From the UHGV virus genome UHGV-0194471: a DNA stretch of 37,103 nucleotides, one strand, 5' to 3'. The position numbers were made by a program, and so were the translations under genes. The stretch is from a virus. Positions 2,918 to 36,441 of this stretch are shown piece after piece (within the stretch, counting starts at the first letter, position 1; the number at the start of each line of letters is the position of its first letter). Under the pieces are notes generated by a model. The model ran no database searches. It was not told the origin of the DNA and saw nothing but the letters and a program-made list of their open reading frames with translations.

Positions 2918-2988
2918 AAAATAGTCTCCAGGGTGATTTCAGGGTGTGCGAAGCCTGCCGGGTTGACGGCATTTTTCTGCGACCTGAA

Positions 2989-3117
2989 TTAATTAAATAA
3001 GGCTATGAATATAAAAATCAGTGTAGTTATAGCGCTGGCCCATAATACAAAACGGTCAGCCAGCGATATCTTGCGGTATTGCATCACGTCCTTTCCGGTT
3101 AATTTGTGAAATACCAT
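2989..3117 (-). CDS. Candidate 42-aa hydrophobic peptide (not in the supplied ORF track)
   Basis: ATG at 3117 preceded by AAAGGAG 8 nt upstream; translation MVFHKLTGKDVMQYRKISLADRFVLWASAITTLIFIFIALFN has one predicted transmembrane helix; fills a 200-bp gap. Confidence 0.3.
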   Translation of the reverse strand: MVFHKLTGKDVMQYRKISLADRFVLWASAITTLIFIFIALFN

Positions 3118-3119
3118 TT

Positions 3120-4244
3120 TCACACTCCTTTAATCACATCCGCATTCACCACCGGCACGCCGATATCAGCGGCCAGATTCATTGCGGCGATAACCAGATT
3201 CCCCAGCGCCAGCGGATAAAGCAGACTGACGTCACCGCGTCGGGATGAATTACATAATCGGGCGCGGATAGCATCGGCGGTGCTATCATCCAGCACCTCG
3301 GAAACACCTTTCCCGGTACGCTGAAATTTGAACGCCAGAAACGCTTCCAGATAGTTATCCAGCGGCAGCAGTTCGACGACCTCGCAGCGCTGTACCACTT
3401 CGCGCACCTCCTGATTACGTTCAGAAAGTTTCAGCTTTAGCTCCGGCTGGCCAATCAACACCACCGACAGCAGCTTTTTAAAGCCGTCCTCCAGCTCAAA
3501 GAACCGCTTCAAATGCTTGAGCGTCGGCACCGGTAGCGAGTGCGCCTCTTCAATAACCAGACAATGTGAGAACCCGGCGCGGGCCGACTCTTTCAGCACC
3601 CGGTGCAACTGGCGGTAACGGGCCTCCTGCGAGCGTTTGACGTTCTCCAGCGGTGCGATGGTGTTGATGATGGCCTCGGCAATCGACGCCGCTTTCAGAG
3701 TTTTGCCTTTGGCGTCGTTGTCTTCCATCGCAATGATGTACGGTTCGATGAGGATAACTGGCGCGTTTTCACGGTTGATGCGATCAGCCAGGTCACGGCG
3801 TAGCGTGGTTTTCCCTGCGCCGGATTCGCCAACTACGGCGATAAATCCGCCATGTCGCGCGGTCTGATACAGTGCTTCACGCACGTAGCGGATATCTGGC
3901 GTGGTGAACACGTCGTCCGCACTCTGCATAACCTCATCGGCGAACGGGTCGCGGAACAACCCAAAATGCTTCTTCGCCGCTGGATTTAATACCTGTTTTG
4001 CCAGTAACATATTTTCGTCCTCACTGGATGATGTACCGGTGCAGGCGGTGGCCGCCGTCTGCGCCTCCTTCAGTTCAATACCTTTTTCTGCAAAAAATGT
4101 GCTGATGCGCTCCCGTAGTTCTTCTGTTTTCGGCCACAGGCCGTGATTAACCATCTGCGCGATAACCGCTGCGGAAACTCCGGTAGCCTGTGCTACTGCT
4201 GCCTGAGTGATGCCACGCTGGCGCAACTGTTGTTTAATCTGCAT
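3120..4244 (-). CDS. MuB-like transposition ATPase / target DNA activator
   Basis: N-terminal HTH, Walker A GESGAGKT and Walker B-like HCLVIEEAH; lies immediately downstream of the transposase as in Mu A-B. Confidence 0.8.
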   Translation of the reverse strand: MQIKQQLRQRGITQAAVAQATGVSAAVIAQMVNHGLWPKTEELRERISTFFAEKGIELKEAQTAATACTGTSSSEDENMLLAKQVLNPAAKKHFGLFRDPFADEVMQSADDVFTTPDIRYVREALYQTARHGGFIAVVGESGAGKTTLRRDLADRINRENAPVILIEPYIIAMEDNDAKGKTLKAASIAEAIINTIAPLENVKRSQEARYRQLHRVLKESARAGFSHCLVIEEAHSLPVPTLKHLKRFFELEDGFKKLLSVVLIGQPELKLKLSERNQEVREVVQRCEVVELLPLDNYLEAFLAFKFQRTGKGVSEVLDDSTADAIRARLCNSSRRGDVSLLYPLALGNLVIAAMNLAADIGVPVVNADVIKGV

Positions 4245-4253
4245 AACTCCCCC

Positions 4254-6008
4254 TTAACCGCCGACTACGTTCAGTTGCACTCGGGCGGTAAGCTGCTGCG
4301 CGGCGGCGTCCAGTTCTTCTTCCGCCACGCCTTCTGGCCAGCGTTTCACCAGTTCCTGATACAGTGCGACGTTCCATTCCGGCAACCGTGCTTTCAGCGC
4401 CTTCGCCGCCTCGACGTGAGTCAGACGCCGGGCTTCAACGCGTGGAGCGCGTACCGGGGAATCCTGACCACGACGCGGCAGGAACGCGGGCAGTTCGCTG
4501 TCGGTGATGGGTTTATACGGGTCAAGCCTGCCGCCGAACGGCAGCGCCTTCGCTTTACGCGCCGCAGCCGCGTCCGTCTCGTTATCTGTTCCGGTAACAA
4601 TCTGCTCAATCTGTTTAGCCGCAGTCTGCGCGGGTGTATCGGCGTGGCGCTTGTGATTCTGGCCCAGCACCGCCGCGCCTTCGGCAAAGCCGTATTCGTC
4701 CTTGCGGACTTCCTCCACCAGGTGAAAATACTCGTGGCCATCGTCACCGATGAGCACTACCTGCGCGGCATCGCTGCGCCACGGATTGCGGGTGATCATC
4801 AGTTTTTCACCCACCATCACATCTGGCACGGTGGAGACGTCGTATTCCGTACCCTGAAACGACACGCGCAGCTTCGGCGTTATCTTGCGGCTTTCCGGCG
4901 CGGCAACAGCCAGTTCGCGGCAGACCTCCACCGATGGCGCTTTGATAAGCTGCTGCGCGGTGATGGTCATCCAGACGTTACTACGCGACTTGCCGTGGCG
5001 GGTGTGAATCGCGGTGGCGTTGAAGTGCTGCCGCCACAGGCGCGCTTTGGCGTTCAGTTCCTCCAGGCTGTGAACCGGCTGGAACTTCAGCCCCGGTTCA
5101 AAGCGGCGTTCGATAATGTCGCGCGCCTTTTCCACCTGCCCGGTGGCGCGGGCGTTGTGGGCTTTATGCGCCACCACGTCAATGCCCAGCGAACGACAGA
5201 GGTTCTTCGTCATAGCGGCGGTGTTGGCCGAGCCGGGGTCGAGATACAACATATGCGGCACGCCGTGGAGCACATCCGCGCCGCCGCGCTCCTGCATGGC
5301 ATTGATGAGAACGGAACAGAGATTTTCGCCAGACTCCGCCCCCATCACGTATTCAACGTAGATCCAGCCGCTGGTATGGTCGGTCAGTTCATAGCTCCAT
5401 ACCCGGTCACTGGCGATACGTTGCAGGTTCTTCGGCTTGTTTTTGTAGAACGTCGCGCTGTCCATCACCTGTAACCCGCGCTGGCCGTTGCTGAGGTAGT
5501 ACAGCGTGCAGAGCGAGGCGTCGATTTCCCAGACGTGATTGGGGTGCAGACTGGCAAGCTCCGTCACTGGCGCGGGCTGGCTGAGTTGATCCGGGTGCAG
5601 GCCGTAGCCACGCAGCGCCCGGATGATGGTGCTTTCTGACAATGGCACCCACTCGCCGCTTTCCTCATCCAGCCGCCCGGCGTCAATCTCGCCGTTGGCG
5701 CGTAACATCTCCACGGCATCAATGACGGAATACAGGCGCTTGCCGTTCTTACGGGTGGCTTCCGTCAGCGTAGCGGAAATCATCACCGCCTCATCGCGGG
5801 TCAGCGCGGTTTTTCCGGCGTCGGTGCGGCGCTTGCGTTTATCGGTCACGGCAACCTCCTTTATTCTGCGTAACAGCGTGGCGCGGGACAGGCCAAGTTC
5901 CGCGCAGGCGGCAGTGTAGATTGCGCCGCGTGCGCCATGCCCGGCCTGCCGTGCAGCCTGAGCAACAGCAACTAAGCGTTCGGTCATGACGGCGCTCATG
6001 GTCAGCAT
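4254..6008 (-). CDS. Mu-family DDE transposase
   Basis: 584 aa with an integrase-type catalytic core (candidate DDE residues in WEIDAS, YLDPGS, QVEKARDIIERRFE); position upstream of the B-like ATPase. Confidence 0.8.
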   Translation of the reverse strand: MLTMSAVMTERLVAVAQAARQAGHGARGAIYTAACAELGLSRATLLRRIKEVAVTDKRKRRTDAGKTALTRDEAVMISATLTEATRKNGKRLYSVIDAVEMLRANGEIDAGRLDEESGEWVPLSESTIIRALRGYGLHPDQLSQPAPVTELASLHPNHVWEIDASLCTLYYLSNGQRGLQVMDSATFYKNKPKNLQRIASDRVWSYELTDHTSGWIYVEYVMGAESGENLCSVLINAMQERGGADVLHGVPHMLYLDPGSANTAAMTKNLCRSLGIDVVAHKAHNARATGQVEKARDIIERRFEPGLKFQPVHSLEELNAKARLWRQHFNATAIHTRHGKSRSNVWMTITAQQLIKAPSVEVCRELAVAAPESRKITPKLRVSFQGTEYDVSTVPDVMVGEKLMITRNPWRSDAAQVVLIGDDGHEYFHLVEEVRKDEYGFAEGAAVLGQNHKRHADTPAQTAAKQIEQIVTGTDNETDAAAARKAKALPFGGRLDPYKPITDSELPAFLPRRGQDSPVRAPRVEARRLTHVEAAKALKARLPEWNVALYQELVKRWPEGVAEEELDAAAQQLTARVQLNVVGG

Positions 6009-11432: not shown

Positions 11433-11454
11433 GCCTCCATCACCCAATGGAGGC
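11433..11454 (+). promoter_or_regulatory. Hairpin enclosing the Shine-Dalgarno of the holin-like gene
   Basis: GCCTCCAT-cacccA-ATGGAGGC, 8-bp stem; the GGAGG at 11449..11453 is in the 3' arm, 5 nt before ATG 11459. Confidence 0.4.
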
Positions 11455-11458
11455 ACTT

Positions 11459-11749
11459 ATGAAAACTTCTCTTTTCCCGCGTTTATCCGGCTGGCTGGTG
11501 GCATCGGTGGTGTTGTTCGCGCTGATTGCGCTGATTTCCCCGCAGCAGCTTCCGGTCGTTGTTTACAAACTGAGCCTGATCTCGCTGGCGGCGGTGCTGG
11601 GCTACTGGCTGGATCGCAGCCTGTTTCCCTATGCGCGGCCAAATTATTTTCAGTCAGCGGAAAATGAACAACGTCTCTTTGCCGCCGCCATGCTGCGCCG
11701 TGCGGTGATTGTCGCGGCGGTGTGTCTGGCCGTGGCGATGGGGCTGTAG
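11459..11749 (+). CDS. Putative holin / small membrane protein (3 predicted TM helices)
   Basis: 96 aa, hydrophobic segments, immediately upstream of the endolysin; GGAGG RBS. Confidence 0.45.
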   Translation: MKTSLFPRLSGWLVASVVLFALIALISPQQLPVVVYKLSLISLAAVLGYWLDRSLFPYARPNYFQSAENEQRLFAAAMLRRAVIVAAVCLAVAMGL

Positions 11750-11751
11750 CC

Positions 11752-12486
11752 ATGACGCTGCATATGTACTGGCCGCAGGTTGTCTGGTCTGTGACGGCGC
11801 TGCTGGGGATGGGAATGGCGCTGGCGCGTCACGGGCAACCGCGCACCGATAAACACAATTTCTGGTACCAGTCGCTGGCGGTACTGATTGCAGGCTGGCT
11901 GCTCTGGTGCGGCGGTTTTTTTAGCCAGGCCAATGCCGCCGAACCGCCCGCTTCCGCCAAACCTTACCGCGCCGAACTGGTGCGTAATGCCCGCGCGGTA
12001 TGGGGGATGGATGCGCCTGTCGCCGATTTCGCCGGGCAGTTCCAGCAGGAATCCGACTGGAATCCCGCCGCCCGTTCACCCGTTGGTGCGCAGGGGATGG
12101 CGCAGTTTATGCCCTCCACTAGCGACTGGATCAGCCAACTGCTTCCCGAACTCCGCGCCCGAGAGCCGTTTAACCCGTCGTGGGCCATCCGGGCGCTGGT
12201 GCAATACGACCAGTGGTTGTGGCAGCGCGTCAGCGCCCGCGATGGTTGCCAGCGAATGGCATTCACCTTAAGCGCCTATAACGGCGGTTTAGGCTGGGTG
12301 AACCGCGATAAAAAGCTGGCGGCGCAGCGCGGGCTGGATGCCGCCGTCTGGTTTGACGCGGTGGCGACGGTCAACGCCGGGCGCAGCGCCGCCAACTGGC
12401 GCGAGAACCGGGGTTATCCGCAACGCATCCTGTACCAGAACGCGCCGCGCTATCTGTCATGGGGAGGGGCTAACTGTGTTCGATAA
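11752..12486 (+). CDS. Endolysin, lytic transglycosylase (SLT domain) with N-terminal membrane/SAR-like segment
   Basis: SLT signature ESDWNPAARSPVGAQGMAQFMPST; N-terminal hydrophobic helices; start taken at ATG 11752 (track start 11722 overlaps the holin gene). Confidence 0.7.
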   Translation: MTLHMYWPQVVWSVTALLGMGMALARHGQPRTDKHNFWYQSLAVLIAGWLLWCGGFFSQANAAEPPASAKPYRAELVRNARAVWGMDAPVADFAGQFQQESDWNPAARSPVGAQGMAQFMPSTSDWISQLLPELRAREPFNPSWAIRALVQYDQWLWQRVSARDGCQRMAFTLSAYNGGLGWVNRDKKLAAQRGLDAAVWFDAVATVNAGRSAANWRENRGYPQRILYQNAPRYLSWGGANCVR

Positions 12487-13069
12487 ACTCAAAACGGCGG
12501 GGTTAGCCGCCACGCTGATACTGCTATTCGTCGTGTTTGGCGGGTATTTCGCGTGGCTGCAAGGCCACAAACACGGCTACGAGAAGGCGCAGACTGAATG
12601 CCTGCGCCTGCAAAAACAGCAGGCCAAGGCCGGGCAACGGGCGTTGCAGGAGGAAATAAACCGCAGCCAGCAGCAGTTGATTCACATCCGGGAAAACGAG
12701 CAGACCTACCTCGCCCGGACAGAGGAACTGACCGCCCGCAACGCCGAACTACAGAGGAAAATTAACGATGTTACGCAGCATTACGTTGACGAAAAAGGCA
12801 AGGCTCATACTGTGGCCTGCGTGTTTACTCGCGGCTTCGTGCAGCAGTACAACGCCTCCCTCGGCGTGTCCGCCCCGGATGTTGCCGCCGCTACCCGCGA
12901 CGCTGGCGCGGCCGCCGCAGCCGTTCAGGGCGCTGACGCCCGGTTACGCGCCTCCGGCGTCAGCCAGCGCGACATCCTCGCCAATCTCGCCGACAACGGC
13001 CAGCGCTGCCAGCAGTTAGCGCTCCAGGTGCGTGGCTTGCAGAACTATATCGCGGAGGTGTCGCGATGA
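12476..13069 (+). CDS. Rz-like i-spanin
   Basis: GTG start preceded by GGGGAGGGG; N-terminal TM (LAATLILLFVVFGGYFAWL) then coiled-coil periplasmic domain; the track start 12338 is an upstream extension overlapping the endolysin. Confidence 0.6.
   Translation: MFDKLKTAGLAATLILLFVVFGGYFAWLQGHKHGYEKAQTECLRLQKQQAKAGQRALQEEINRSQQQLIHIRENEQTYLARTEELTARNAELQRKINDVTQHYVDEKGKAHTVACVFTRGFVQQYNASLGVSAPDVAAATRDAGAAAAAVQGADARLRASGVSQRDILANLADNGQRCQQLALQVRGLQNYIAEVSR
12768..13019 (+). CDS. Rz1-like o-spanin embedded in the +1 frame of Rz
   Basis: Lipoprotein signal with lipobox LLAASC followed by a proline-rich mature peptide; GAGGAAA RBS; fully nested in the i-spanin gene. Confidence 0.55.
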   Translation: MLRSITLTKKARLILWPACLLAASCSSTTPPSACPPRMLPPLPATLARPPQPFRALTPGYAPPASASATSSPISPTTASAASS

Positions 13070-14239: not shown

Positions 14240-15843
14240 AACCTTTAAGCAGCACCGTCCGTATTGTTGACTGGGAGGAACTGCCGCCCAGAGCCAGAGA
14301 TATTCCGGCTGGTTTTAACCCAATGACCGACGGCGTTCTGATGAAACATCAGGTGGATGTCCTGAAAATCAGAAAGTCGATTCTCGCTGTGCCTAAAGGC
14401 CGTCGAACTGGCATCACCTTTGCCTTTGGCTTTGAAGCTGTCCTGACCGCAGCCGCCCGGAAAAGCAGCGGAGGTATGGACGTTTACTACATCGGCGATA
14501 CCAAAGAGAAAGGTCTGGAGTTTATCGGTTACTGCGCCAAATTCTCTCGTGTTATTGCCGAACAACAGGCGGATTCTGTCTCCAGCATTGAAGAGTTCTT
14601 GTTTGACGATCAGGACGAGGATGGCAACACCCGCAAAATCACCGCCTATCGTGTCCGCTATGCGTCAGGTTTTCAGACTGTCGCACTATCATCCCGTCCT
14701 GCGAATATTCGTGGTTTGCAAGGGATGGTGATCATAGACGAAGCTGCGTTCCATCAGGATGTTCAAGGGGTACTGGACGCGGCAACGGCACTTCTCATCT
14801 GGGGGGGTAGGATTGTGGTGATCTCCTCGCATAAAGGAAAATCGAACCGCTTCAACGCCTTTATTATTGATATTGAAAACGGCTTATACGGCGAGGATGC
14901 AGCGGTTTATACCGTGACTTTCGATGATGCTGTAGCTAACGGGCTGTACGAGCGCGTCTGTTTTATGCAGGGCGAAGAACCTACGCTGGAGGGGAAAACC
15001 GCCTGGTACAGTCGCATCCGTAATGCCTATGGCCCGCGTAAAGCCGCCATGCGCGAGGAACTGGACGCGATCCCCCGCGACGGCAATGGCATCTGTATTC
15101 CTGGGATCTGGATAGAAGCCGCGATGCCGCCGGGAGACGACCGGACAATACTGCGGCTGACGCTGGATGAGGGTTTCACGGCGAAATCCAGGAAGGAGCG
15201 CGAAGAGTACGTCACCGACTGGATCATGCGTTATCTGGAGCCGGTGATCGCCGGGCTTGATATCAGCCTGCGTTATGCAATGGGGGATGACTTTGCCCGC
15301 CACCGCGATTTTTCCGCCATTGTGCTGATGGCCATCATGCCCAACCTGTACCGCCGCGTGCCGCTGATTATTGAAATGCACAAGGTTCCCACCCGCCAAC
15401 AGGAGCAAATCCTGTGGTATCTGCTGCGCGCTCTGCGGTGTTTTTCCGGGGCGATGGATGCCACCGGGCCGGGGCAGACGCTGGCAGAGTATACCGCCGA
15501 TGAGTTCGGCACCAGCCGTATCGCGCAGGTTAACCTTAGTCGTTCCTGGTATGGGTTGTGGATGCCAAAGCTGATTCAGGCATTTGAAGATGGCGTGCTG
15601 ACATTACCAGCGGATGAGAACGTGCGGCAGGATCTGCATTCCGTCGAGGATATTGACGGTATTCCGATGGTTTCCTCGGTGCGTAAAGAAGACCTTAAAG
15701 ACCCGGAGCTGTTCCGCCACGGCGATACGGCTATTGCGCTGGCGCTGGCATGGTTTGCATCTGTCGCCATACATACCGGCCCGGTGACGGTGAACTCCCG
15801 CCGCCGTCGCCAGTCCGCACGATTACTGGAGAACTATCACTGA
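14236..15843 (+). CDS. Terminase large subunit (Mu gp28-like)
   Basis: 535 aa; Walker B-like VIIDEAAF; position between the gp27-like and portal genes. Confidence 0.7.
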   Translation: MKPLSSTVRIVDWEELPPRARDIPAGFNPMTDGVLMKHQVDVLKIRKSILAVPKGRRTGITFAFGFEAVLTAAARKSSGGMDVYYIGDTKEKGLEFIGYCAKFSRVIAEQQADSVSSIEEFLFDDQDEDGNTRKITAYRVRYASGFQTVALSSRPANIRGLQGMVIIDEAAFHQDVQGVLDAATALLIWGGRIVVISSHKGKSNRFNAFIIDIENGLYGEDAAVYTVTFDDAVANGLYERVCFMQGEEPTLEGKTAWYSRIRNAYGPRKAAMREELDAIPRDGNGICIPGIWIEAAMPPGDDRTILRLTLDEGFTAKSRKEREEYVTDWIMRYLEPVIAGLDISLRYAMGDDFARHRDFSAIVLMAIMPNLYRRVPLIIEMHKVPTRQQEQILWYLLRALRCFSGAMDATGPGQTLAEYTADEFGTSRIAQVNLSRSWYGLWMPKLIQAFEDGVLTLPADENVRQDLHSVEDIDGIPMVSSVRKEDLKDPELFRHGDTAIALALAWFASVAIHTGPVTVNSRRRRQSARLLENYH

Positions 15844-17321
15844 TGCCACGCGGAATCTACGTTACCCCCACCGAGTTTGTCTCATTCATCGAGCCGACCA
15901 AAAGCCTGTCAGAGCAAATCGCTGTCCGCTCGCGCTCGATTGATTTTTACGGGCTGGGAATGTACCTGCCCAACCCTGACCCCATTCTCAAGGCGCAGGG
16001 GCGCGATATCAAAATCTACCGCGAACTGCGCAGCGATCCCTTAGTCGGCGGTTGTATCCGGCGACGTAAAGCGGCGGTGAAAGCGCTGGAGCACGGTGTC
16101 GAACGCGGCAACGCCACGGCGCGGGTGTTTCGCTTTGTGCGTGATCTGTTCGCGGATTTAGATATCGCCCGCATCACCGGTGAAATGACCGACGCTGTGC
16201 TCTACGGCTATCAGCCGTGTGAACTGATGTGGGCGCGTGGCGGCAAATCATGGGCAGTGACCGATGTGGTGGGTAAGCCCCCGGAGTGGTTCCAGTTCGA
16301 TATGGAAAACCGCCTGCGCTTTCGCGCCCGTAATGCCGGACTAGAGGGCGAGTTGACGCCACCGTATAAATTCCTGCTGCCGCGTCAGGATGCGACCTAC
16401 GATAACCCGTATGGTTTCCCGGATCTGTCGATGTGCTTCTGGCCCGTGACCTTCAAGAAAGGCGGCATGAAGTTCTGGGTGCGCTTTGCCGAGAAATACG
16501 GCTCGCCGTGGGTTGTCGGCAAGCATCCGCGTGGTACGTCGCAGGGTGAGATTAACCAGTTGCTGGATTCGCTGGAGGCGATGATTGAGGATGCGGTGGC
16601 CGCTATCCCGGATGACTCTTCGGTGGATATCAAAGAGGCCGCAGGTAAAGCCGATTCCAGCGATATTTACCAGAACCTGATCACAATGTCGCGCAGTGAG
16701 ATTTCCATTGCCTTGCTGGGGCAGAATCAGACCACTGAAGCCAGCGCCAACAAAGCTTCGGCGCAGGCCGGGCTGGAAGTGACGGATGATATCCGTGACG
16801 GTGATGCATCCATTGTAACCAGCGCGTTTAACCAACTTATCCGCTGGATTGTGGAACTGAACTTTGGTGCGGTGGACTGCCCTGTGTTCCGTATGTGGGA
16901 GCAGAAAACGGTTGATGAGGTGCAGGCCGGACGCGACCAGAAGTTATCGCAGGCAGGTGTGAAATTCACCCCGCAGTACTGGAAGCGCGAGTATCAATTA
17001 CAGGATGGCGATATCGACGAAACCCCGGCACCTGCGCCAGTGGCATTTGCGGAGGCGGTGACAGCGGATGTCGCCGCGCAGGAGCTGCTTGACACGGCGC
17101 TGGATGAACTGATGACCAGCGGTAAGCTGGACGATACGCTGACGCCGGTGCTGGCTCCCTTGTTTGCGCGGGTACAAAAAGGCGTCGCACCAGCGGTGCT
17201 GATGGGCGAACTGGCGGAACTGTACCCCCAGATGAACACCGACGACCTGACAGAACGGCTGGCGCGTGTGCTGTTTGTGGCGAATATCTGGGGGCGGCTC
17301 CATGAGCGTGACGAGCAGTGA
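15843..17321 (+). CDS. Portal protein (Mu gp29-like, DUF935)
   Basis: ~492 aa; ATG overlaps the terminase stop; conserved synteny terminase-portal-F. Confidence 0.7.
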   Translation: MPRGIYVTPTEFVSFIEPTKSLSEQIAVRSRSIDFYGLGMYLPNPDPILKAQGRDIKIYRELRSDPLVGGCIRRRKAAVKALEHGVERGNATARVFRFVRDLFADLDIARITGEMTDAVLYGYQPCELMWARGGKSWAVTDVVGKPPEWFQFDMENRLRFRARNAGLEGELTPPYKFLLPRQDATYDNPYGFPDLSMCFWPVTFKKGGMKFWVRFAEKYGSPWVVGKHPRGTSQGEINQLLDSLEAMIEDAVAAIPDDSSVDIKEAAGKADSSDIYQNLITMSRSEISIALLGQNQTTEASANKASAQAGLEVTDDIRDGDASIVTSAFNQLIRWIVELNFGAVDCPVFRMWEQKTVDEVQAGRDQKLSQAGVKFTPQYWKREYQLQDGDIDETPAPAPVAFAEAVTADVAAQELLDTALDELMTSGKLDDTLTPVLAPLFARVQKGVAPAVLMGELAELYPQMNTDDLTERLARVLFVANIWGRLHERDEQ

Positions 17322-22124: not shown

Positions 22125-22351
22125 AATTTATTTACCGCGGCCCGGCCAGCGGCGTGACGTTAGCCGATGGCGCAGAAGTGCTGCTCTGGCCAGAGCATGA
22201 GGTGGAACTGCCGGAAGATCTGGACTATGTGCAGACGCTGCTGGCGCTGAAGCATCTCACACCAGCGCCAGTTGAACCCGAAGTGGTGCCTGAACCTGAA
22301 CCACAACCCCTGAAGGGTAAAAAAGAGAAGGAGACAACCAGTGGCAGCTAA
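22121..22351 (+). CDS. Small protein preceding the sheath gene (Mu gp38-like)
   Basis: 76 aa with a proline/glutamate-rich C-terminus. Confidence 0.4.
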   Translation: MKFIYRGPASGVTLADGAEVLLWPEHEVELPEDLDYVQTLLALKHLTPAPVEPEVVPEPEPQPLKGKKEKETTSGS

Positions 22352-23756
22352 TTATTTACACGGCGTCGAGACTATCGAGATCGAACGCGGCCCGCGCCCG
22401 GTGCGTACCGTTAAGTCGGCGGTGATTGGTCTTGTAGGAACGGCTCCGGCTGGCCCGATTAACACATCGGTATTGTGCCTGTCAGAGAAAGACGCGGCGC
22501 AGTTCGGCTCGCAGGTTTCCGGGTTCAGTATCCCGCAGGCACTGGATGCGATTTATGACCACGGCGCGGGAACGGTGGTGGTAATTAACGTGGCCGATCC
22601 GGCAAAGCACAGCGTAACGGCCTCTACCATCGCACGTCGGGTTGATGATAATCATCAGATCAGGCTGGACTATGGCGCGGTCAGTAATGTCGTTTTGAAG
22701 GTGTCGGGCGCGAGTTCAGATTTAAGCCCGGCAAATTATACCGTTGATGCCGGAACTGGCGTTGTTACATGCCCGACGGTTAACGCAGGCGACACGCTGT
22801 TTGCCACATATCGTTATATCGATCCGACAAAAATCACCGCTGCCGATATCATCGGCGCGATCAATGCCGCAGGCCAGCGTATCGGGATGAAGCTGCTGGA
22901 GGATACCTATAGTCTCTATGGTTTTAAACCGAAAATCCTGATCGCCCCGGTGTTCTGTACGCAAAAATCGGTCAGTACCGAGCTGATTGCCCTGGCGGAA
23001 AAGCTGGACGCTATCACCTATATCGATGCGCCAGTTGGCACGACCTTCAGCCAGGTGCTGGCAGGCCGTGGCGCATCCGGGACTATCAACTTCAATACCA
23101 GTTCCGAACGCGCCCGTCTGTGCTACCCGCACGTTAAGGTGTATGACTCTGTCACCGACAGCGAACGGCTGGAGCCGCTTTCCTCCCGCGCCGCTGGCCT
23201 GCGTGCCAAAGTGGATCTGGATAACGGTTTCTGGTGGAGCAACTCCAACCAGGAGATCCTCGGCATCACTGGTGTGGAACGTTCGCTGTCGGCGATGATT
23301 GATGACCCGCAAAGCGAGGTGAATCAACTGAACGAAAACGGCATCACCACCGTTTTCAACAGCTACGGCACCGGGATGCGACTGTGGGGCAACCGTACCG
23401 CCGCCTGGCCGACCGTTACCCATATGCGCAACTTTGAAAATGTGCGGCGCACCGGGGATGTGATTAACGAGTCGATCCGTTACTTCAGTCAGCAGTATCT
23501 GGATATGCCGATTAACCAGGCGCTGATTGACGCGCTAACCGAATCGGTGAATGCCTATGGCCGCAAGCTGATTGGCGACGGCGCATTGCTGGGCTTCGAG
23601 TGCTGGTATGACCCGGCGCGTAATGAGCAGACCGAGCTGGCCGCTGGCCATCTGCTGCTCAGTTACAAATATACGCCGCCTCCGCCGCTGGAACGGCTGA
23701 CGTTTGAGACGGAAATCACTTCGGAATATCTGGTTAATCTGGAAGGTAAACGCTGA
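22341..23756 (+). CDS. Tail sheath protein (Mu L-like)
   Basis: 471 aa, directly followed by the tube gene. Confidence 0.7.
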   Translation: MAANYLHGVETIEIERGPRPVRTVKSAVIGLVGTAPAGPINTSVLCLSEKDAAQFGSQVSGFSIPQALDAIYDHGAGTVVVINVADPAKHSVTASTIARRVDDNHQIRLDYGAVSNVVLKVSGASSDLSPANYTVDAGTGVVTCPTVNAGDTLFATYRYIDPTKITAADIIGAINAAGQRIGMKLLEDTYSLYGFKPKILIAPVFCTQKSVSTELIALAEKLDAITYIDAPVGTTFSQVLAGRGASGTINFNTSSERARLCYPHVKVYDSVTDSERLEPLSSRAAGLRAKVDLDNGFWWSNSNQEILGITGVERSLSAMIDDPQSEVNQLNENGITTVFNSYGTGMRLWGNRTAAWPTVTHMRNFENVRRTGDVINESIRYFSQQYLDMPINQALIDALTESVNAYGRKLIGDGALLGFECWYDPARNEQTELAAGHLLLSYKYTPPPPLERLTFETEITSEYLVNLEGKR

Positions 23757-24280
23757 TGGGCGGAAAAATTGAAGTTAACCGTATTACCAACGCCAATATC
23801 TATATCAATGGTAATAACCTGCTGGGCCGCGCGGAGGAGATTAAGCTGCCGGATATCAGCATGATTATGCAGGAGCATAAGGCGCTGGGGATGGTCGGCA
23901 AGATTGAGTTGCCCGCTGGGTTCGACAAACTGGAGGGCGAAATCAAGTGGAACAGCTTCTATCGCGAAGTGATGCGCCATGCGGCTAACCCGTATAAGTC
24001 GCTGGCGTTGCAGTGCCGTTCGTCTATCGACCGCTATAACTCAACGGGGCGTATCGATGAAATCCCGCTGGTGACGCACCTGACGGTAATGTTCAAGAAG
24101 AATCCGCTGGGGACGTTTAAGCAACATGAGAACCCGGATTTTTCCAGTGCCTTTAGCTGCACCTATATCAAGCAGGTGGTGGACGGCGAGACGCTGCTGG
24201 AACTGGATTATCTGGCGAATATCTTCAAAGTGAATGGCGTGGATCAGTTGAGCACCTATCGCGCCAATATCGGCGGTTAA
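23756..24280 (+). CDS. Tail tube protein (Mu M-like)
   Basis: 174 aa immediately after the sheath gene. Confidence 0.65.
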   Translation: MGGKIEVNRITNANIYINGNNLLGRAEEIKLPDISMIMQEHKALGMVGKIELPAGFDKLEGEIKWNSFYREVMRHAANPYKSLALQCRSSIDRYNSTGRIDEIPLVTHLTVMFKKNPLGTFKQHENPDFSSAFSCTYIKQVVDGETLLELDYLANIFKVNGVDQLSTYRANIGG

Positions 24281-24328
24281 CCACTCATTAAAGCTGTTTA
24301 ATACTGTTTGTTTCATCCCTCCTCAATA

Positions 24329-24355
24329 CTGTCCTCAGTTCAACACTGAGGACAG
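24329..24355 (+). promoter_or_regulatory. Perfect 10-bp stem hairpin enclosing the Shine-Dalgarno of the tail chaperone gene
   Basis: CTGTCCTCAG-ttcaaca-CTGAGGACAG; the GAGGA in the 3' arm lies 8 nt before ATG 24361; direct repeat AATACTGT upstream. Confidence 0.45.
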
Positions 24356-24360
24356 TCACC

Positions 24361-24663
24361 ATGACAGACACATTCAAACTGCAATACCCCTTCACCGCAC
24401 CCTCCGGGCAGCGTATCGACGAACTGCAACTGACTCGCCTGAAGGTCAAAGATATGCGTGCGGCTCGACGTATCAGCGATAAACCTGAAGACTGGGACGA
24501 ACCGCTACTGGCGGCGATGACCGGACTGGTGCCGGAAGATTTGGCCGAAATGGATCTTGCTGACTATCAGGCGTTGCAGAAACGATTTCAGAACATGCTT
24601 GGGCTGGGCGGCGAACCCGCAGCAACTGTGGCAGGCGATGGCGCTGCTGGCACGGTGGTTTAG
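24361..24663 (+). CDS. Tail assembly chaperone (between tube and tape measure)
   Basis: 100 aa in the conserved chaperone position; an open +1 frame extends to 24763. Confidence 0.55.
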   Translation: MTDTFKLQYPFTAPSGQRIDELQLTRLKVKDMRAARRISDKPEDWDEPLLAAMTGLVPEDLAEMDLADYQALQKRFQNMLGLGGEPAATVAGDGAAGTVV

Positions 24664-24737
24664 GTTTCAACCAGGGGAAATTGACAATCTGGCGGTCGGG
24701 GATTTTGAACGCTGGCTTGATGAGGCCAGCGCCCAGA

Positions 24738-25016
24738 TTAAGCGTGAGAACGGCGGCGGTTGAGTACCCATTCGGTGATGCTGCCGACAAGGGCGAACAG
24801 GAAGGCCAGCAGGGAAATGGCCGGGCTAAATAACCAGCCTGCCAGTGCGGTCAGCAACAGTACACCAACGCTGCCCACACCAATCATCAAAGTTGCCGCC
24901 AGCCCATCATGGCAGTTATGCAGGGTATAGCTGACCACATGAAACAGCGCCCAACCATCCACCGCCACAATCGCGGCGATCAATAGTCCTTTAAACAGGG
25001 TTAATGCGTTGTTCAT
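24738..25016 (-). CDS. Minus-strand small membrane protein (3 predicted TM helices) inside the tail operon
   Basis: 92 aa; AAGAGG RBS 5 nt before the ATG; fills a gap between chaperone and tape-measure genes that no plus-strand gene covers. Confidence 0.5.
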   Translation of the reverse strand: MNNALTLFKGLLIAAIVAVDGWALFHVVSYTLHNCHDGLAATLMIGVGSVGVLLLTALAGWLFSPAISLLAFLFALVGSITEWVLNRRRSHA

Positions 25017-25056
25017 AACGCCTCTTTTTTATTGTGGTTTTCCGGGAGTGTAAAGC

Positions 25057-27831
25057 GTGGCTGCTGAATTTTCAATCGGTGTTCTTATTAGTGGCGCAGT
25101 CACTGGCGCATTTCGTTCTGCTATTGGAGGAACCCAGCGAGCGTTAAACGATCTCCAATCCACCACGCAGCGATTGCAAAACCGTCAGGCCGCGCTGACG
25201 CAGGCGATGACACGTTACGGGCAGGCAGGTATTAGCAGTACATCCCGGCTCAACAACGAATTACAGCAAGTCAGTCGCACAATGGCGCGGCTGGAAAGCC
25301 AGCAAAATAAATTATCCAGCGCAACGGCGCGTAGCCAGGCGATGCGTTCGCAGCGGATGGATCTTTACGCCCAGGGTGCAGAGACCTACGCGCTGGCCAG
25401 AACGATGTCGGCCCCTCTGGTGTCGTCAGTGAAAACCTATGCGGGGTTTGAATCAGGGCTGCGGGATATTGCCGTGACCGGGGATCTGGACAGTAAACAG
25501 GAAGCGGCGATCGATAACGCCATCCGTCAGGCAGCGGGTAAAGTCAACCAGTTGCAGGAAACGCTACTCGGTGGCGTGAATCAACTGGTAGCCGATGGTA
25601 TGAACCCGGAGAAAGCGGCGGGAATGGTGGATTTGCTTGGTAAAACCGCCACGGCCACCAAGGCTGATATGACCGATCTGGCAAAAATGACTTTCGCTTT
25701 TAGCGATGCCTTGAAGATTAGCGATGGAAAGGAGATGCAGGAAGCCTTTGCAATGGCAGCGGTCGGAGCAAAGACCGGCTCCTTTGAACTGAAAGATATG
25801 GCAAAGGCATTGCCTACCCTGACAAAAAGCTTTGCGGCTAAAGGTATTACGGGTAAGGAAGCGATTAAAGAAATTGTCGCCTCTCTCGAAGCTGCAAAAG
25901 GCTCTGGTTCGGCAGAAGAAGCCGTGACCAATATGACCAACTGGATGGGCGCAATGACGCGCGGCGATACCGTCAAGAAATATGAAAAGGCGGGCGTAAA
26001 TTATGAAGCGTCGATGAAAGATTATGTCGCCAAAGGTTATTCGCAATATGAAGCCTCGCTGATGATTGCTGACCGCTTTATTAAAGGTAAAGGCGATGCC
26101 TTTATAAAACAGTGGCAGGAAGCGGGGGCACGTGGCGACGGTGAGTCGCAACAGAAGTTGATGGAGTCGTTTGGTCTGTCGGAGGTTTTTACCGATATTC
26201 AAACCGTCAATCATCTGCTTTCCATGCGTCAGAACTGGGATCAATATCAGTCGAATAAAGCCAAAATGGGTGACCCGGCATCACAGAATGTGCTGGATAC
26301 TGATTTTAATAAGCAAAACGATACCCTGGAAGCCCGCTGGCGAAGCTCGCAGGTAGCGATGAATGAGATGGCAATCAGTATCGGTAGTTCTCTACGCCCG
26401 GCACTGGTCGAATTATCGGAAAGTCTGCTGCCAGTAATGAGTTCTTTTGCAAAATGGCTTTCAGCTAACCCGGAGATGGTGGCGAATATAGCCAAACTAC
26501 TGGCCGGATTTATTGCATTCAAAGCGGCGACGGTCGGTAGCAAGCTGGCTCTGAATATGATGTTGTCGCCGTTTGTGGATTGTATTAAAGCGGTAACGTT
26601 GCTTAACACGAAATGGCTGCTTCTGAAAACAGCCTTTTCGTCTGGCGGCAAACTGGCAGGCATCACTAAGTTGTTCGGCTCGCTAGCGCGTGGTGCCTTG
26701 TCATTAGGCAAAATCCTTGCCGGTGGATTAATGCGTGGCGTGATGATGGCCGCCCGTGCCGTAATGTTTCTGGGCCGTGCGCTGCTGATGAATCCCATCG
26801 GGTTGATTATCACTGGCATCGCGGCAGCCGCGTATCTGATTTATCGCTACTGGGGGCCCATTTCCGGCTTCTTTAAACGGCTGTGGGCGCAGGTCACGGT
26901 AGCGTTTCGCGGGGCGTGGAGCGGCATCAAAGGTATCTGGAGTGGCGTGTCGGGCTGGTTCTCTGGTATCTGGGCGCAAATCAAAACCGCATTCAGCGGT
27001 GGGATTGGCGGCGTGGCAAAGCTGATTACCAACTGGTCGCCGCTGGGCCTGTTCTATAAAGCTTTTGCCGGAGTGATGAAATACTTCGGTATCGATATGC
27101 CGAAGAACTTTACCGATTTTGGCGGTAATCTGATTAACGGTCTGATGAACGGTATCGGCAATGCGCTGACTGCTGCGAAAGAGACGGTCGTTAACTTTGG
27201 TAACTCGATTTCAGGCTGGTTTAAGGAGACGCTGGGCATTCACTCCCCGAGCCAGGTGTTTGCCGGGTTCGGCGACAATATCGCGCAAGGGGCCGCTATC
27301 GGTATCAACCGCACCGCCCCGGATGCGATTTCCGCCAGCCAACAGATGGCGGCGGCGTTAATTCCCCCGTTGCTGGATATCCGCGTTCCGGGTCTGGATG
27401 TTGCCGCAATACCACAGCGACCACCTGTTGCGGGTGGCATCGCGCCTCAACTCAACCCACTGCTGCCGAAAGTCGCACCGCCCACCATTGTGCCAGCCCC
27501 CACTGCGGCGGGTATGGCGCTGGCTGGGGCGGCGGGCGCGGTGTTATCTCGCCGCAAACCGCTGCCGCCAGTGCCACCAAAACCCGCCGTACCTGCCGTT
27601 CCTGAACTGCCGAAAAGTACCGCACCAGCCGCCAAAGGCCGCAATGCCAGTGCGCGTGTGCCGGGGCAGTCATCCGGGGTGAATGTGACCTTTGCGCCGC
27701 AAATTACCATCAAAGGCGCGGCATCGACGACCGAGGGCGAAATCACCTCTGCGCTGAAACTGAGCCTGCACGAACTTGAAAAGATGATGGAGCGGATTAT
27801 GGCGCGTCGTGAACGCCGGGAGTATGCATAA
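25057..27831 (+). CDS. Tail tape measure protein
   Basis: 924 aa, GTG start after GGGAG; long helical protein with internal hydrophobic segments and a Pro-rich C-terminal region; sits after the chaperone. Confidence 0.75.
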   Translation: MAAEFSIGVLISGAVTGAFRSAIGGTQRALNDLQSTTQRLQNRQAALTQAMTRYGQAGISSTSRLNNELQQVSRTMARLESQQNKLSSATARSQAMRSQRMDLYAQGAETYALARTMSAPLVSSVKTYAGFESGLRDIAVTGDLDSKQEAAIDNAIRQAAGKVNQLQETLLGGVNQLVADGMNPEKAAGMVDLLGKTATATKADMTDLAKMTFAFSDALKISDGKEMQEAFAMAAVGAKTGSFELKDMAKALPTLTKSFAAKGITGKEAIKEIVASLEAAKGSGSAEEAVTNMTNWMGAMTRGDTVKKYEKAGVNYEASMKDYVAKGYSQYEASLMIADRFIKGKGDAFIKQWQEAGARGDGESQQKLMESFGLSEVFTDIQTVNHLLSMRQNWDQYQSNKAKMGDPASQNVLDTDFNKQNDTLEARWRSSQVAMNEMAISIGSSLRPALVELSESLLPVMSSFAKWLSANPEMVANIAKLLAGFIAFKAATVGSKLALNMMLSPFVDCIKAVTLLNTKWLLLKTAFSSGGKLAGITKLFGSLARGALSLGKILAGGLMRGVMMAARAVMFLGRALLMNPIGLIITGIAAAAYLIYRYWGPISGFFKRLWAQVTVAFRGAWSGIKGIWSGVSGWFSGIWAQIKTAFSGGIGGVAKLITNWSPLGLFYKAFAGVMKYFGIDMPKNFTDFGGNLINGLMNGIGNALTAAKETVVNFGNSISGWFKETLGIHSPSQVFAGFGDNIAQGAAIGINRTAPDAISASQQMAAALIPPLLDIRVPGLDVAAIPQRPPVAGGIAPQLNPLLPKVAPPTIVPAPTAAGMALAGAAGAVLSRRKPLPPVPPKPAVPAVPELPKSTAPAAKGRNASARVPGQSSGVNVTFAPQITIKGAASTTEGEITSALKLSLHELEKMMERIMARRERREYA

Positions 27832-35667: not shown

Positions 35668-36441
35668 ATGAAAACATTACCCATTATTCCGTGGCCCGGC
35701 GGTAAGCGTCGTCTGGCCAAAAAGTTATTACCGTTATTTCCTGAGCACCAGTGTTATGTAGAGCCATTCTGCGGCGGTGCAGCCTTGTATTTCATGAAGG
35801 AGCCGGTTGAAGCTGAAGTCCTGAACGATATCAACGGCGAACTGGTGAATCTGTACCGTGTGGTTAAAAATCATCTTGAAGAGTTTGTGCGCCAGTTCAA
35901 GTGGGCGTTGAGCAGCAGGCAGATTTTTGAATGGTCGAAAATGACCATCCCGGAGACGCTAACTGATATTCAGCGTGCAGCGCGGTTTTATTATCTCCAG
36001 AAGCAATCATTCGGAGGGAAAGTGGAATCACAGACGTATGGAACGGCGACCACTTCTGCACCACGGCTTAATCTGCTAAGGCTGGAAGAGGAGTTGAGCG
36101 CCGCCCATTTGCGGCTATCACGCACGTTTGTAGAACATTTACCGTGGCGTACCTGCATTGAGAAGTATGATCGCCCGCACACACTGTTCTATTGCGATCC
36201 CCCGTATTGGGGAACGGAGGGCTACGGTGTTGAATTTGGACTGGAGCAGTACACCCAACTTGCAGAGTTGGCCAGAACGATAAAAGGCAGGATGTTGATC
36301 AGTGTGAACGATATCCCGGAGATGCGTGAAACCTTTGCGGACTTGTCGATTGATACGGTAGATATTCGCTATACGTTGAGCGGTGGGCCTAATGCTAATC
36401 GCTCGAAAGTCAGCCGTGAGCTGGTCATTCGTAACTGGTAA
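35668..36441 (+). CDS. dam: DNA N6-adenine methyltransferase (Dam-like)
   Basis: FCGGAA (AdoMet-binding motif I-like) and DPPY catalytic motif; 257 aa; last gene before the prophage right end. Confidence 0.8.
   Translation: MKTLPIIPWPGGKRRLAKKLLPLFPEHQCYVEPFCGGAALYFMKEPVEAEVLNDINGELVNLYRVVKNHLEEFVRQFKWALSSRQIFEWSKMTIPETLTDIQRAARFYYLQKQSFGGKVESQTYGTATTSAPRLNLLRLEEELSAAHLRLSRTFVEHLPWRTCIEKYDRPHTLFYCDPPYWGTEGYGVEFGLEQYTQLAELARTIKGRMLISVNDIPEMRETFADLSIDTVDIRYTLSGGPNANRSKVSRELVIRNW

Follow-up and report, generated by a model that had tools for sequence, protein, structure and literature searches.

The stretch of DNA analysed here (37,103 nucleotides; hereafter the window) represents a transposable prophage of E. 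coli that resembles BcepMu. Its early genes, among them the rve transposase (4254-6008) and an AAA ATPase (3120-4244), are located on the minus strand, and it also encodes a Mu-type portal (15750-17321) and a Dam methylase (35668-36441). A lysis cassette at ~11.4-13.1 kb comprises a holin-like ORF (11447-11749), an SLT endolysin (11722-12486) and an Rz-like ORF (12338-13069). The tail module is of the P2 type. The sheath (22341-23756) is followed on the plus strand by the tail tube (23756-24280, assigned by Pfam), the tail assembly chaperone E (24361-24663, PF10109), the segment E' (24638-24763), which lies in the +1/-2 frame with respect to E and ends at a conserved terminus, and the tape measure T of 924 aa (25057-27831, PF10145). 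The assignment of E and E' is further based on the PGAP annotation “GpE family phage tail protein” in a related locus (L001) and on phrog_8286.

The stop of E' and the start of T are 293 nt apart, and this gap is filled by a gene on the minus strand, which we call X (24738-25016). X and T are divergent, their starts being separated by a 40-nt spacer. The preliminary description had placed an ORF between the chaperone and tape-measure genes in a gap free of plus-strand genes, and this arrangement is confirmed, as each plus frame contains 3-5 stops across the gap in the window. The upstream neighbor, however, is more precisely E', with which X shares a convergent overlap of 26 nt (24738-24763), so that the X tail ...NRRRSHA and its stop are antisense to the E' end ...KRENGGG and its stop. 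The overlap is 100% identical in two relatives (L003 and L079). The E' C-terminus QIKRENG.. (..QIKRENGGG before the stop in the window) is kept in relatives with or without X, and since it is retained even where X is absent, the overlap is constrained by E'.

X encodes 92 aa from an ATG start. A Shine-Dalgarno sequence, AAGAGG (25021-25026, minus strand), precedes this ATG by 4 nt. Hydropathy indicates three hydrophobic segments at approximately residues 4-30, 38-62 and 64-86, and the AlphaFold2 model contains three helices spanning residues 2-34, 38-62 and 64-91 at a mean pLDDT of 84. The three transmembrane (TM) helices and the good ribosome-binding site of the preliminary description are thus borne out. 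TM2 and TM3 bear small-xxx-small or glycine motifs (MIGGGA and AGVGAL), while the C-terminal tail, NRRRSHA, is basic. Judged from charge only, the positive-inside rule gives as the probable topology an N-terminus in the periplasm and a basic tail in the cytoplasm. The family shares an N-terminal M-x-N-A-L motif, the MIGGGA of helix 2, an LQP turn and a C-terminal RRSHA/V. The GC content of X equals that of the window (0.548 each; late region 0.567), and its GC3 of 0.63 is inside the range of the neighboring genes. The exact X protein is found on 199 E. coli contigs, where it is labelled “hypothetical protein”.

The neighboring chaperone region has features of its own. Of 147 related loci, 145 have E' in the +1 (or -2) frame with respect to E; the usual frame for tail-chaperone frameshifts is -1, and a -2 shift is reported for Mu. 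In the window, where E ends with ...GTG GTT TAG G, reaching E' would require the ribosome to slip by +1 at GUU ahead of the stop codon or to shift by -2. A 12-bp perfect hairpin (24328-24356, CTGTCCTCAGT..ACTGAGGACAG; folding-energy z = -3.9) is situated between the tube gene and E, and its 3' arm includes the GAGGA ribosome-binding site of E, 5 nt before the ATG. This hairpin may lower the translation of the chaperone compared with that of the tube protein. The tube-E interval is also a second variable slot, which ranges from ~55 nt to ~2 kb among the related loci L004-L156 (~400 nt in many Pectobacterium loci, ~680 nt in L036 and ~2 kb in L047). Some relatives thus have additional genes at this site, and Klebsiella phage KP12 carries a 93-aa ORF in this interval.

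For a comparative analysis, approximately 150 related tail modules were gathered using the tube protein as query, and annotated phages were added. The X frame is free of stops in all 24 X-bearing loci, which extend from Burkholderia to the Enterobacterales and have nucleotide identities down to ~50%. On the opposite strand, one plus frame is interrupted by stops in 21 of these loci and the other two in every one. For X pairs that are not saturated, dN/dS is 0.10-0.35, and substitutions are most frequent at the third codon position, followed by the first and then the second. All loci with an E'-T gap of 268-298 nt have a hydrophobic minus-strand ORF of 80-98 aa. These include E. coli/Salmonella, Pectobacterium, Brenneria, Dickeya, Serratia, Xenorhabdus and Symbiopectobacterium/Sodalis-like symbionts, as well as two betaproteobacterial genomes and the Burkholderia phages BcepMu and phiE255; two far-diverged members of the family (P0037 and P0038) occupy the identical antisense slot. 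While 92 open codons alone could occur by chance, an open frame in 24 of 24 loci together with the third-position bias cannot. X thus codes for a protein on the strand opposite to the tail genes, and we consider it with high confidence to be a real, separately transcribed gene.

The annotation of BcepMu (NC_005882.1, our locus L157) seems to contradict this, because it assigns the equivalent stretch to a plus-strand gene, [quoted passage not shown] (24977-25363 of the record, 2978-3364 of the locus), and one plus frame is indeed open across the interval in the GC-rich Burkholderia phages. The minus strand of the same region encodes an 80-aa membrane protein (ATG at L157 3307, stop at 3065; a 243-nt ORF), and the corresponding ORF of phiE255 is annotated as minus-strand membrane protein gp17 (BTHphiE255_0017). 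Both resemble X in slot, antisense orientation, convergent abutment to E', hydrophobicity and basic C-terminus, and they match the family profile with E-values of 1e-6 to 2e-7, but they have 80 aa instead of 92 and are only ~12-23% identical to X. Between BcepMu and phiE255, substitutions are distributed 2/1/10 over the three codon positions of the minus frame, with a dN/dS of 0.10. The sequence comparison thus suggests that “gp43” is most likely spurious and that the real gene is on the opposite strand, as for gp17 of phiE255; the true BcepMu chaperone pair is gp41 and gp42. A chaperone frameshift extension of the G/GT type, as represented by “gp43”, is likewise contradicted by the plus-frame stops in 21-24 of the 24 loci. 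We rejected a non-coding gap or a plus-strand extension on the basis of the plus-frame stops, the substitution pattern and the E' terminus, which stays at QIKRENG.. even where T follows within 3 nt.

Family searches place X outside the described protein families. No family was found in Pfam-A by hmmscan at E ≤ 0.1, the only PHROGs match was a weak one to phrog_25743 (E 0.03, function unknown), PADLOC-DB gave no match at E ≤ 1 for either X or a homologue with 40% identity (P0014), and the NCBIfam scan of X produced noise only; for X and its 40% homologue these four collections contained nothing usable. A tblastn search of X against 50,697 phage records gave no match, and BcepMu and phiE255 were reached via the tape measure instead. 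Foldseek comparison of the AlphaFold2 model with the PDB and BFVD retrieved nothing below an E-value of 0.29. A profile of the X family, searched against 1.84 billion representative proteins, recovered 16 clusters. The named members are all “hypothetical protein” except that of phiE255 (“gp17, putative membrane protein”), and the family is restricted to this prophage slot and lacks chromosomal homologues. In the literature we found no study or experiment on any member, the one relevant data set being a table of transcription start sites (TSS) for B. cenocepacia J2315.

This table provides direct information on the BcepMu homologue. By dRNA-seq, a forward-strand TSS was mapped at position 584611 of J2315 replicon 3 (AM747722); it is TEX-enriched (6.1 to 23.2) and shows a leading edge in gRNA-seq (Sass et al. 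2015, Table S3, sheet “Repl. 3 Forward”; PMC4603805). It was classed as “internal antisense” to BCAS0513 (582079-584619, minus strand) (PMC4603805). BCAS0513 has 2541 nt, the same length as the BcepMu44 tape measure, and the TSS corresponds to its nucleotide 9 and is directed away from this ORF. As the ATG of the BcepMu X homologue is located 29 nt beyond the T start, the 5' UTR would be ~38 nt long. In a bona fide J2315 lysogen, the BcepMu homologue of X therefore has its own primary promoter, and since the start was filed as “antisense”, X is presumably unannotated in J2315. Other forward-strand starts in this BcepMu prophage include the primary TSS of BCAS0504 at 573344 and one at 586008 that is antisense to the 3' end of the sheath gene BCAS0518 (PMC4603805).

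In the window, a σ70-like promoter was found by a promoter scan on the minus strand across the T start (25047-25075), with a -35 hexamer TTGAAA (25075-25070), a 17-nt spacer and a -10 hexamer TACACT (25052-25047), scoring 9 out of 12. All enterobacterial X-bearing loci have such an arrangement at 7-9/12, compared to 4-8/12 in loci lacking X. The candidate promoter overlaps, on the opposite strand, the Shine-Dalgarno sequence and the first codons of T, and because the hexamers coincide with this ribosome-binding site and with conserved codons, their conservation is only suggestive. From the BcepMu homologue we infer that the copy in the window is also transcribed from its own promoter. Another minus-strand promoter-like site lies within the tube gene (24234-24207). 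No terminator was found downstream of X on the minus strand, where the fold has no U-tract (z = -1.5), and the X RNA should consequently extend antisense into E' and E. A plus-strand hairpin with a T-run (25006-25021) is not conserved in other X loci.

X is not present in all related tail modules. In many relatives E' and T are separated by 3-110 nt without any gene, for example in Photorhabdus prophages (3 nt), in Klebsiella phage KP12 (92 nt) and in an S. Typhimurium-type remnant (93 nt), compared with 268-298 nt where X is present at exactly this junction. An intermediate situation is seen in Brenneria alni (L030) and B. izbisi (L052), where gaps of ~190 nt harbor decayed remnants of X (L030 5082-5278 and L052 5088-5279; hmmsearch E-values of 8e-10 and 1.5e-5) with an N-terminal deletion, stops and a frameshift. 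As read from their sequences, these remnants represent gene loss in progress. In the 14-16 kb tail clusters of Pectobacterium (L005-L014 and L081-L108), the E'-T gap is constant at ~216 nt and contains neither a recognizable X remnant nor a conserved ORF; these tail-only clusters are probably tailocin-like. A degraded prophage on a metagenome contig (L163, 633-1202) carries an intact X allele next to a tape measure of which only the first ~65 codons are left, and an unrelated 216-aa ORF follows this stub. The X-less relatives, including KP12, and the pseudogene remnants show that X is dispensable and not required for building virions. Because the slot is shared from Burkholderia to the enterobacteria and pseudogenes occur in it, X looks like an ancestral accessory gene that has been lost repeatedly rather than recently gained.

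Where X is present, it is the fastest-evolving gene of the tail module. Over 105 pairs, X is less conserved than the N-terminus of T in 102 and less conserved than the tube protein in all 105, with median identities of 38%, 66% and 80% for X, the T N-terminus and the tube protein, respectively. The comparison of the window with a Salmonella relative (L003) is an example: identity is 93-97% for the tube protein, E, E' and T, but 40% for X. Such alleles, 40-42% identical, sit in flanks that are 93-98% identical. The borders against L003 are sharp, with an identity of 100% over the E' overlap, 97% over the first 31 nt of X and 97.5% over the X-T spacer, and the hypervariable body between them (24764-24985, minus strand), which behaves as an exchanged allele cassette, is only 42% identical at the nucleotide level with flanks at 82-100%. 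A further locus (L079) shows the same pattern, except that the break is at the T start. For the divergent X alleles dS is saturated as well, which argues that distant alleles were imported by recombination and did not arise solely by fast change in place. We also looked for co-variation of X alleles with the tape-measure N-terminus and saw none; the window and L003 differ in X (40%) at 93% identity in T, while the window and L001 are 79% identical in X and 81% in T.

A moron, in the sense of Hendrix and Juhala, is extra DNA between otherwise adjacent genes that has its own promoter and terminator, is expressed from the repressed prophage and has a foreign composition; HK97 gp15 was the first to be defined. 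The preliminary description took opposite-strand genes within packed late operons to be usually independently expressed morons with exclusion, toxin or lysogenic-conversion functions. For X, this is partly supported by the promoter-like site, the BcepMu TSS and the variable presence of the gene, and X is indeed extra DNA between genes that are adjacent in relatives (the E'-T gap). The outcome that would have spoken against it, a gap that is non-coding or taken up by a plus-strand gene in relatives, is not what the sequences show. On the other hand, a terminator of its own was not found, the composition does not differ from the surroundings (GC 0.548 vs. 0.548) and the gene looks ancestral. Given its typical composition and its ancestry in the lineage, X is not a classic, recently inserted, compositionally foreign moron.

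What could be the role of a dispensable membrane protein that is encoded against the late operon and evolves faster than any of its neighbors? X is a genuine accessory gene of this BcepMu-like prophage and encodes a 92-aa inner-membrane protein with three TM helices. We hypothesize that it is transcribed from its own σ70-type promoter across the T start, opposite to the late tail operon. With such a promoter and this orientation, X could be produced in a lysogen whose late genes are not expressed. Residing in the cytoplasmic membrane, it may then block DNA delivery by incoming related contractile-tailed phages. This reading of X as a lysogen-expressed inner-membrane superinfection-exclusion factor, which we favor with a probability of roughly 0.38, is based on the membrane location, the anti-late orientation, the TSS in the BcepMu lysogen, the fact that X is dispensable, an allele turnover suggestive of conflict, and the analogy with HK97 discussed below. 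Allele swapping within conserved flanks combined with the fastest divergence of the module is the signature of an arms race. Several observations weigh against an exclusion function: X resembles none of the exclusion or defence proteins covered by Pfam, PHROGs, PADLOC, NCBIfam or Foldseek, either in sequence or in fold, its alleles do not co-vary with the tape-measure N-terminus, it lacks a terminator, and its retention from Burkholderia to E. coli with a host-like composition would also suit a role in the phage life cycle. A wider proposal, that X founds a lineage-wide anti-injection family in BcepMu-like contractile-tailed transposable phages, antisense at the chaperone/tape-measure junction, with hypervariable allele cassettes setting the specificity between competing prophages, is doubtful at present.

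Alternatively, X could be a lysogenic-conversion or host-physiology factor that modulates a host membrane machine such as a transporter, a sensor or an envelope stress response and thereby raises host fitness. The antisense TSS in the BcepMu lysogen, the membrane character and the dispensability would fit such a factor equally, and the missing co-variation with the tape measure speaks for it. However, fast divergence and allele swaps point more to a conflict interface than to the partner of a conserved host protein, and the family is confined to this prophage slot without chromosomal homologues, which makes a host-directed function unlikely.

A toxic activity appears less probable still. Type I toxin-antitoxin toxins usually have fewer than 60 aa, a single hydrophobic helix and an antisense RNA partner, and X with its 92 aa and three helices does not correspond to this type. 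Class I holins such as lambda S105 and P2 Y, by comparison, are proteins of ~90-105 aa with three TM helices and a charged C-terminal tail. X has this architecture, i.e. ~90 aa, three TM helices and a basic, cytoplasmic C-terminus in a topology derived from charge only, and the small-xxx-small/glycine motifs MIGGGA and AGVGAL in TM2 and TM3 would suit a holin-like, membrane-permeabilizing protein that acts as abortive-infection effector or as modulator of lysis timing. Class I holins are, however, encoded in the lysis cassette beside the endolysin and expressed late, whereas X lies outside the separate cassette of this phage (11447-13069), faces against the late operon and matches no holin family or fold. 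Moreover, the constitutive TSS mapped in a healthy BcepMu lysogen (PMC4603805) is difficult to reconcile with an unregulated toxin.

A role of X in the lytic cycle or infection of the phage itself, for instance in membrane crossing by the tape measure or the DNA or in tail assembly at the membrane, is improbable. Its fixed position beside the tape-measure gene across Beta- and Gammaproteobacteria and its host-like composition would be expected for such a role, but functional or complete relatives do without X (KP12 and the Photorhabdus prophages with their 3-nt gap), the gene is antisense to the late operon, and it is a pseudogene in some loci and survives in a degraded prophage missing most of T. 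Very little speaks for the transcript rather than the protein being what matters, in that antisense RNA across E' and the end of E would damp read-through or leakage of the late operon in lysogens: the 26-nt convergent overlap and the lack of a terminator after X are compatible with this, yet it is the amino-acid sequence that is under purifying selection, and all 24 loci keep the frame open, so that the RNA could have at most an additional role. The weakest reading, that X is not a gene, retains hardly any weight after the comparison with BcepMu and phiE255 described above.

Functional parallels to the proposed exclusion by X are found in other phages. T4 Imm, made by the resident phage, is an inner-membrane blocker of phage DNA entry. 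In P22, SieA is a membrane protein of the resident phage that stops DNA delivery (PMC3594210). Imm and SieA are not homologous to X and differ from it in genomic location, so that the analogy is one of function only. In addition, comparison of X with the PADLOC-DB models did not assign it to any defence system.

The closest parallel comes from HK97, a siphovirus. Its gp15 is a small inner-membrane exclusion protein that the prophage produces and that prevents genome entry, with a specificity that maps to the tail; it has a YebO-like N-terminal region and chromosomal homologues (PMC3594210). Like X, gp15 is a small membrane protein whose gene occupies the slot between the chaperone and tape-measure genes (PMC3594210). 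The two proteins have no sequence relationship, as X has no Pfam match and only the weak PHROGs hit and thus no detectable homology to YebO or gp15, and they differ in the number of helices, which is three in X. X is furthermore antisense, overlaps E' and is found only in this prophage slot. Independently of its function, recognition of X corrects the reference annotation of BcepMu, in which “gp43” is most likely spurious, and accounts for the “internal antisense” TSS of J2315 as the promoter of an unannotated gene. If exclusion holds true, the natural allele series of X would be a ready system for mapping what such proteins recognize, and X would represent a second, unrelated solution at the slot of HK97 gp15, in contractile-tailed Mu-like phages of the pathogens E. 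coli, Salmonella, Pectobacterium and Burkholderia.
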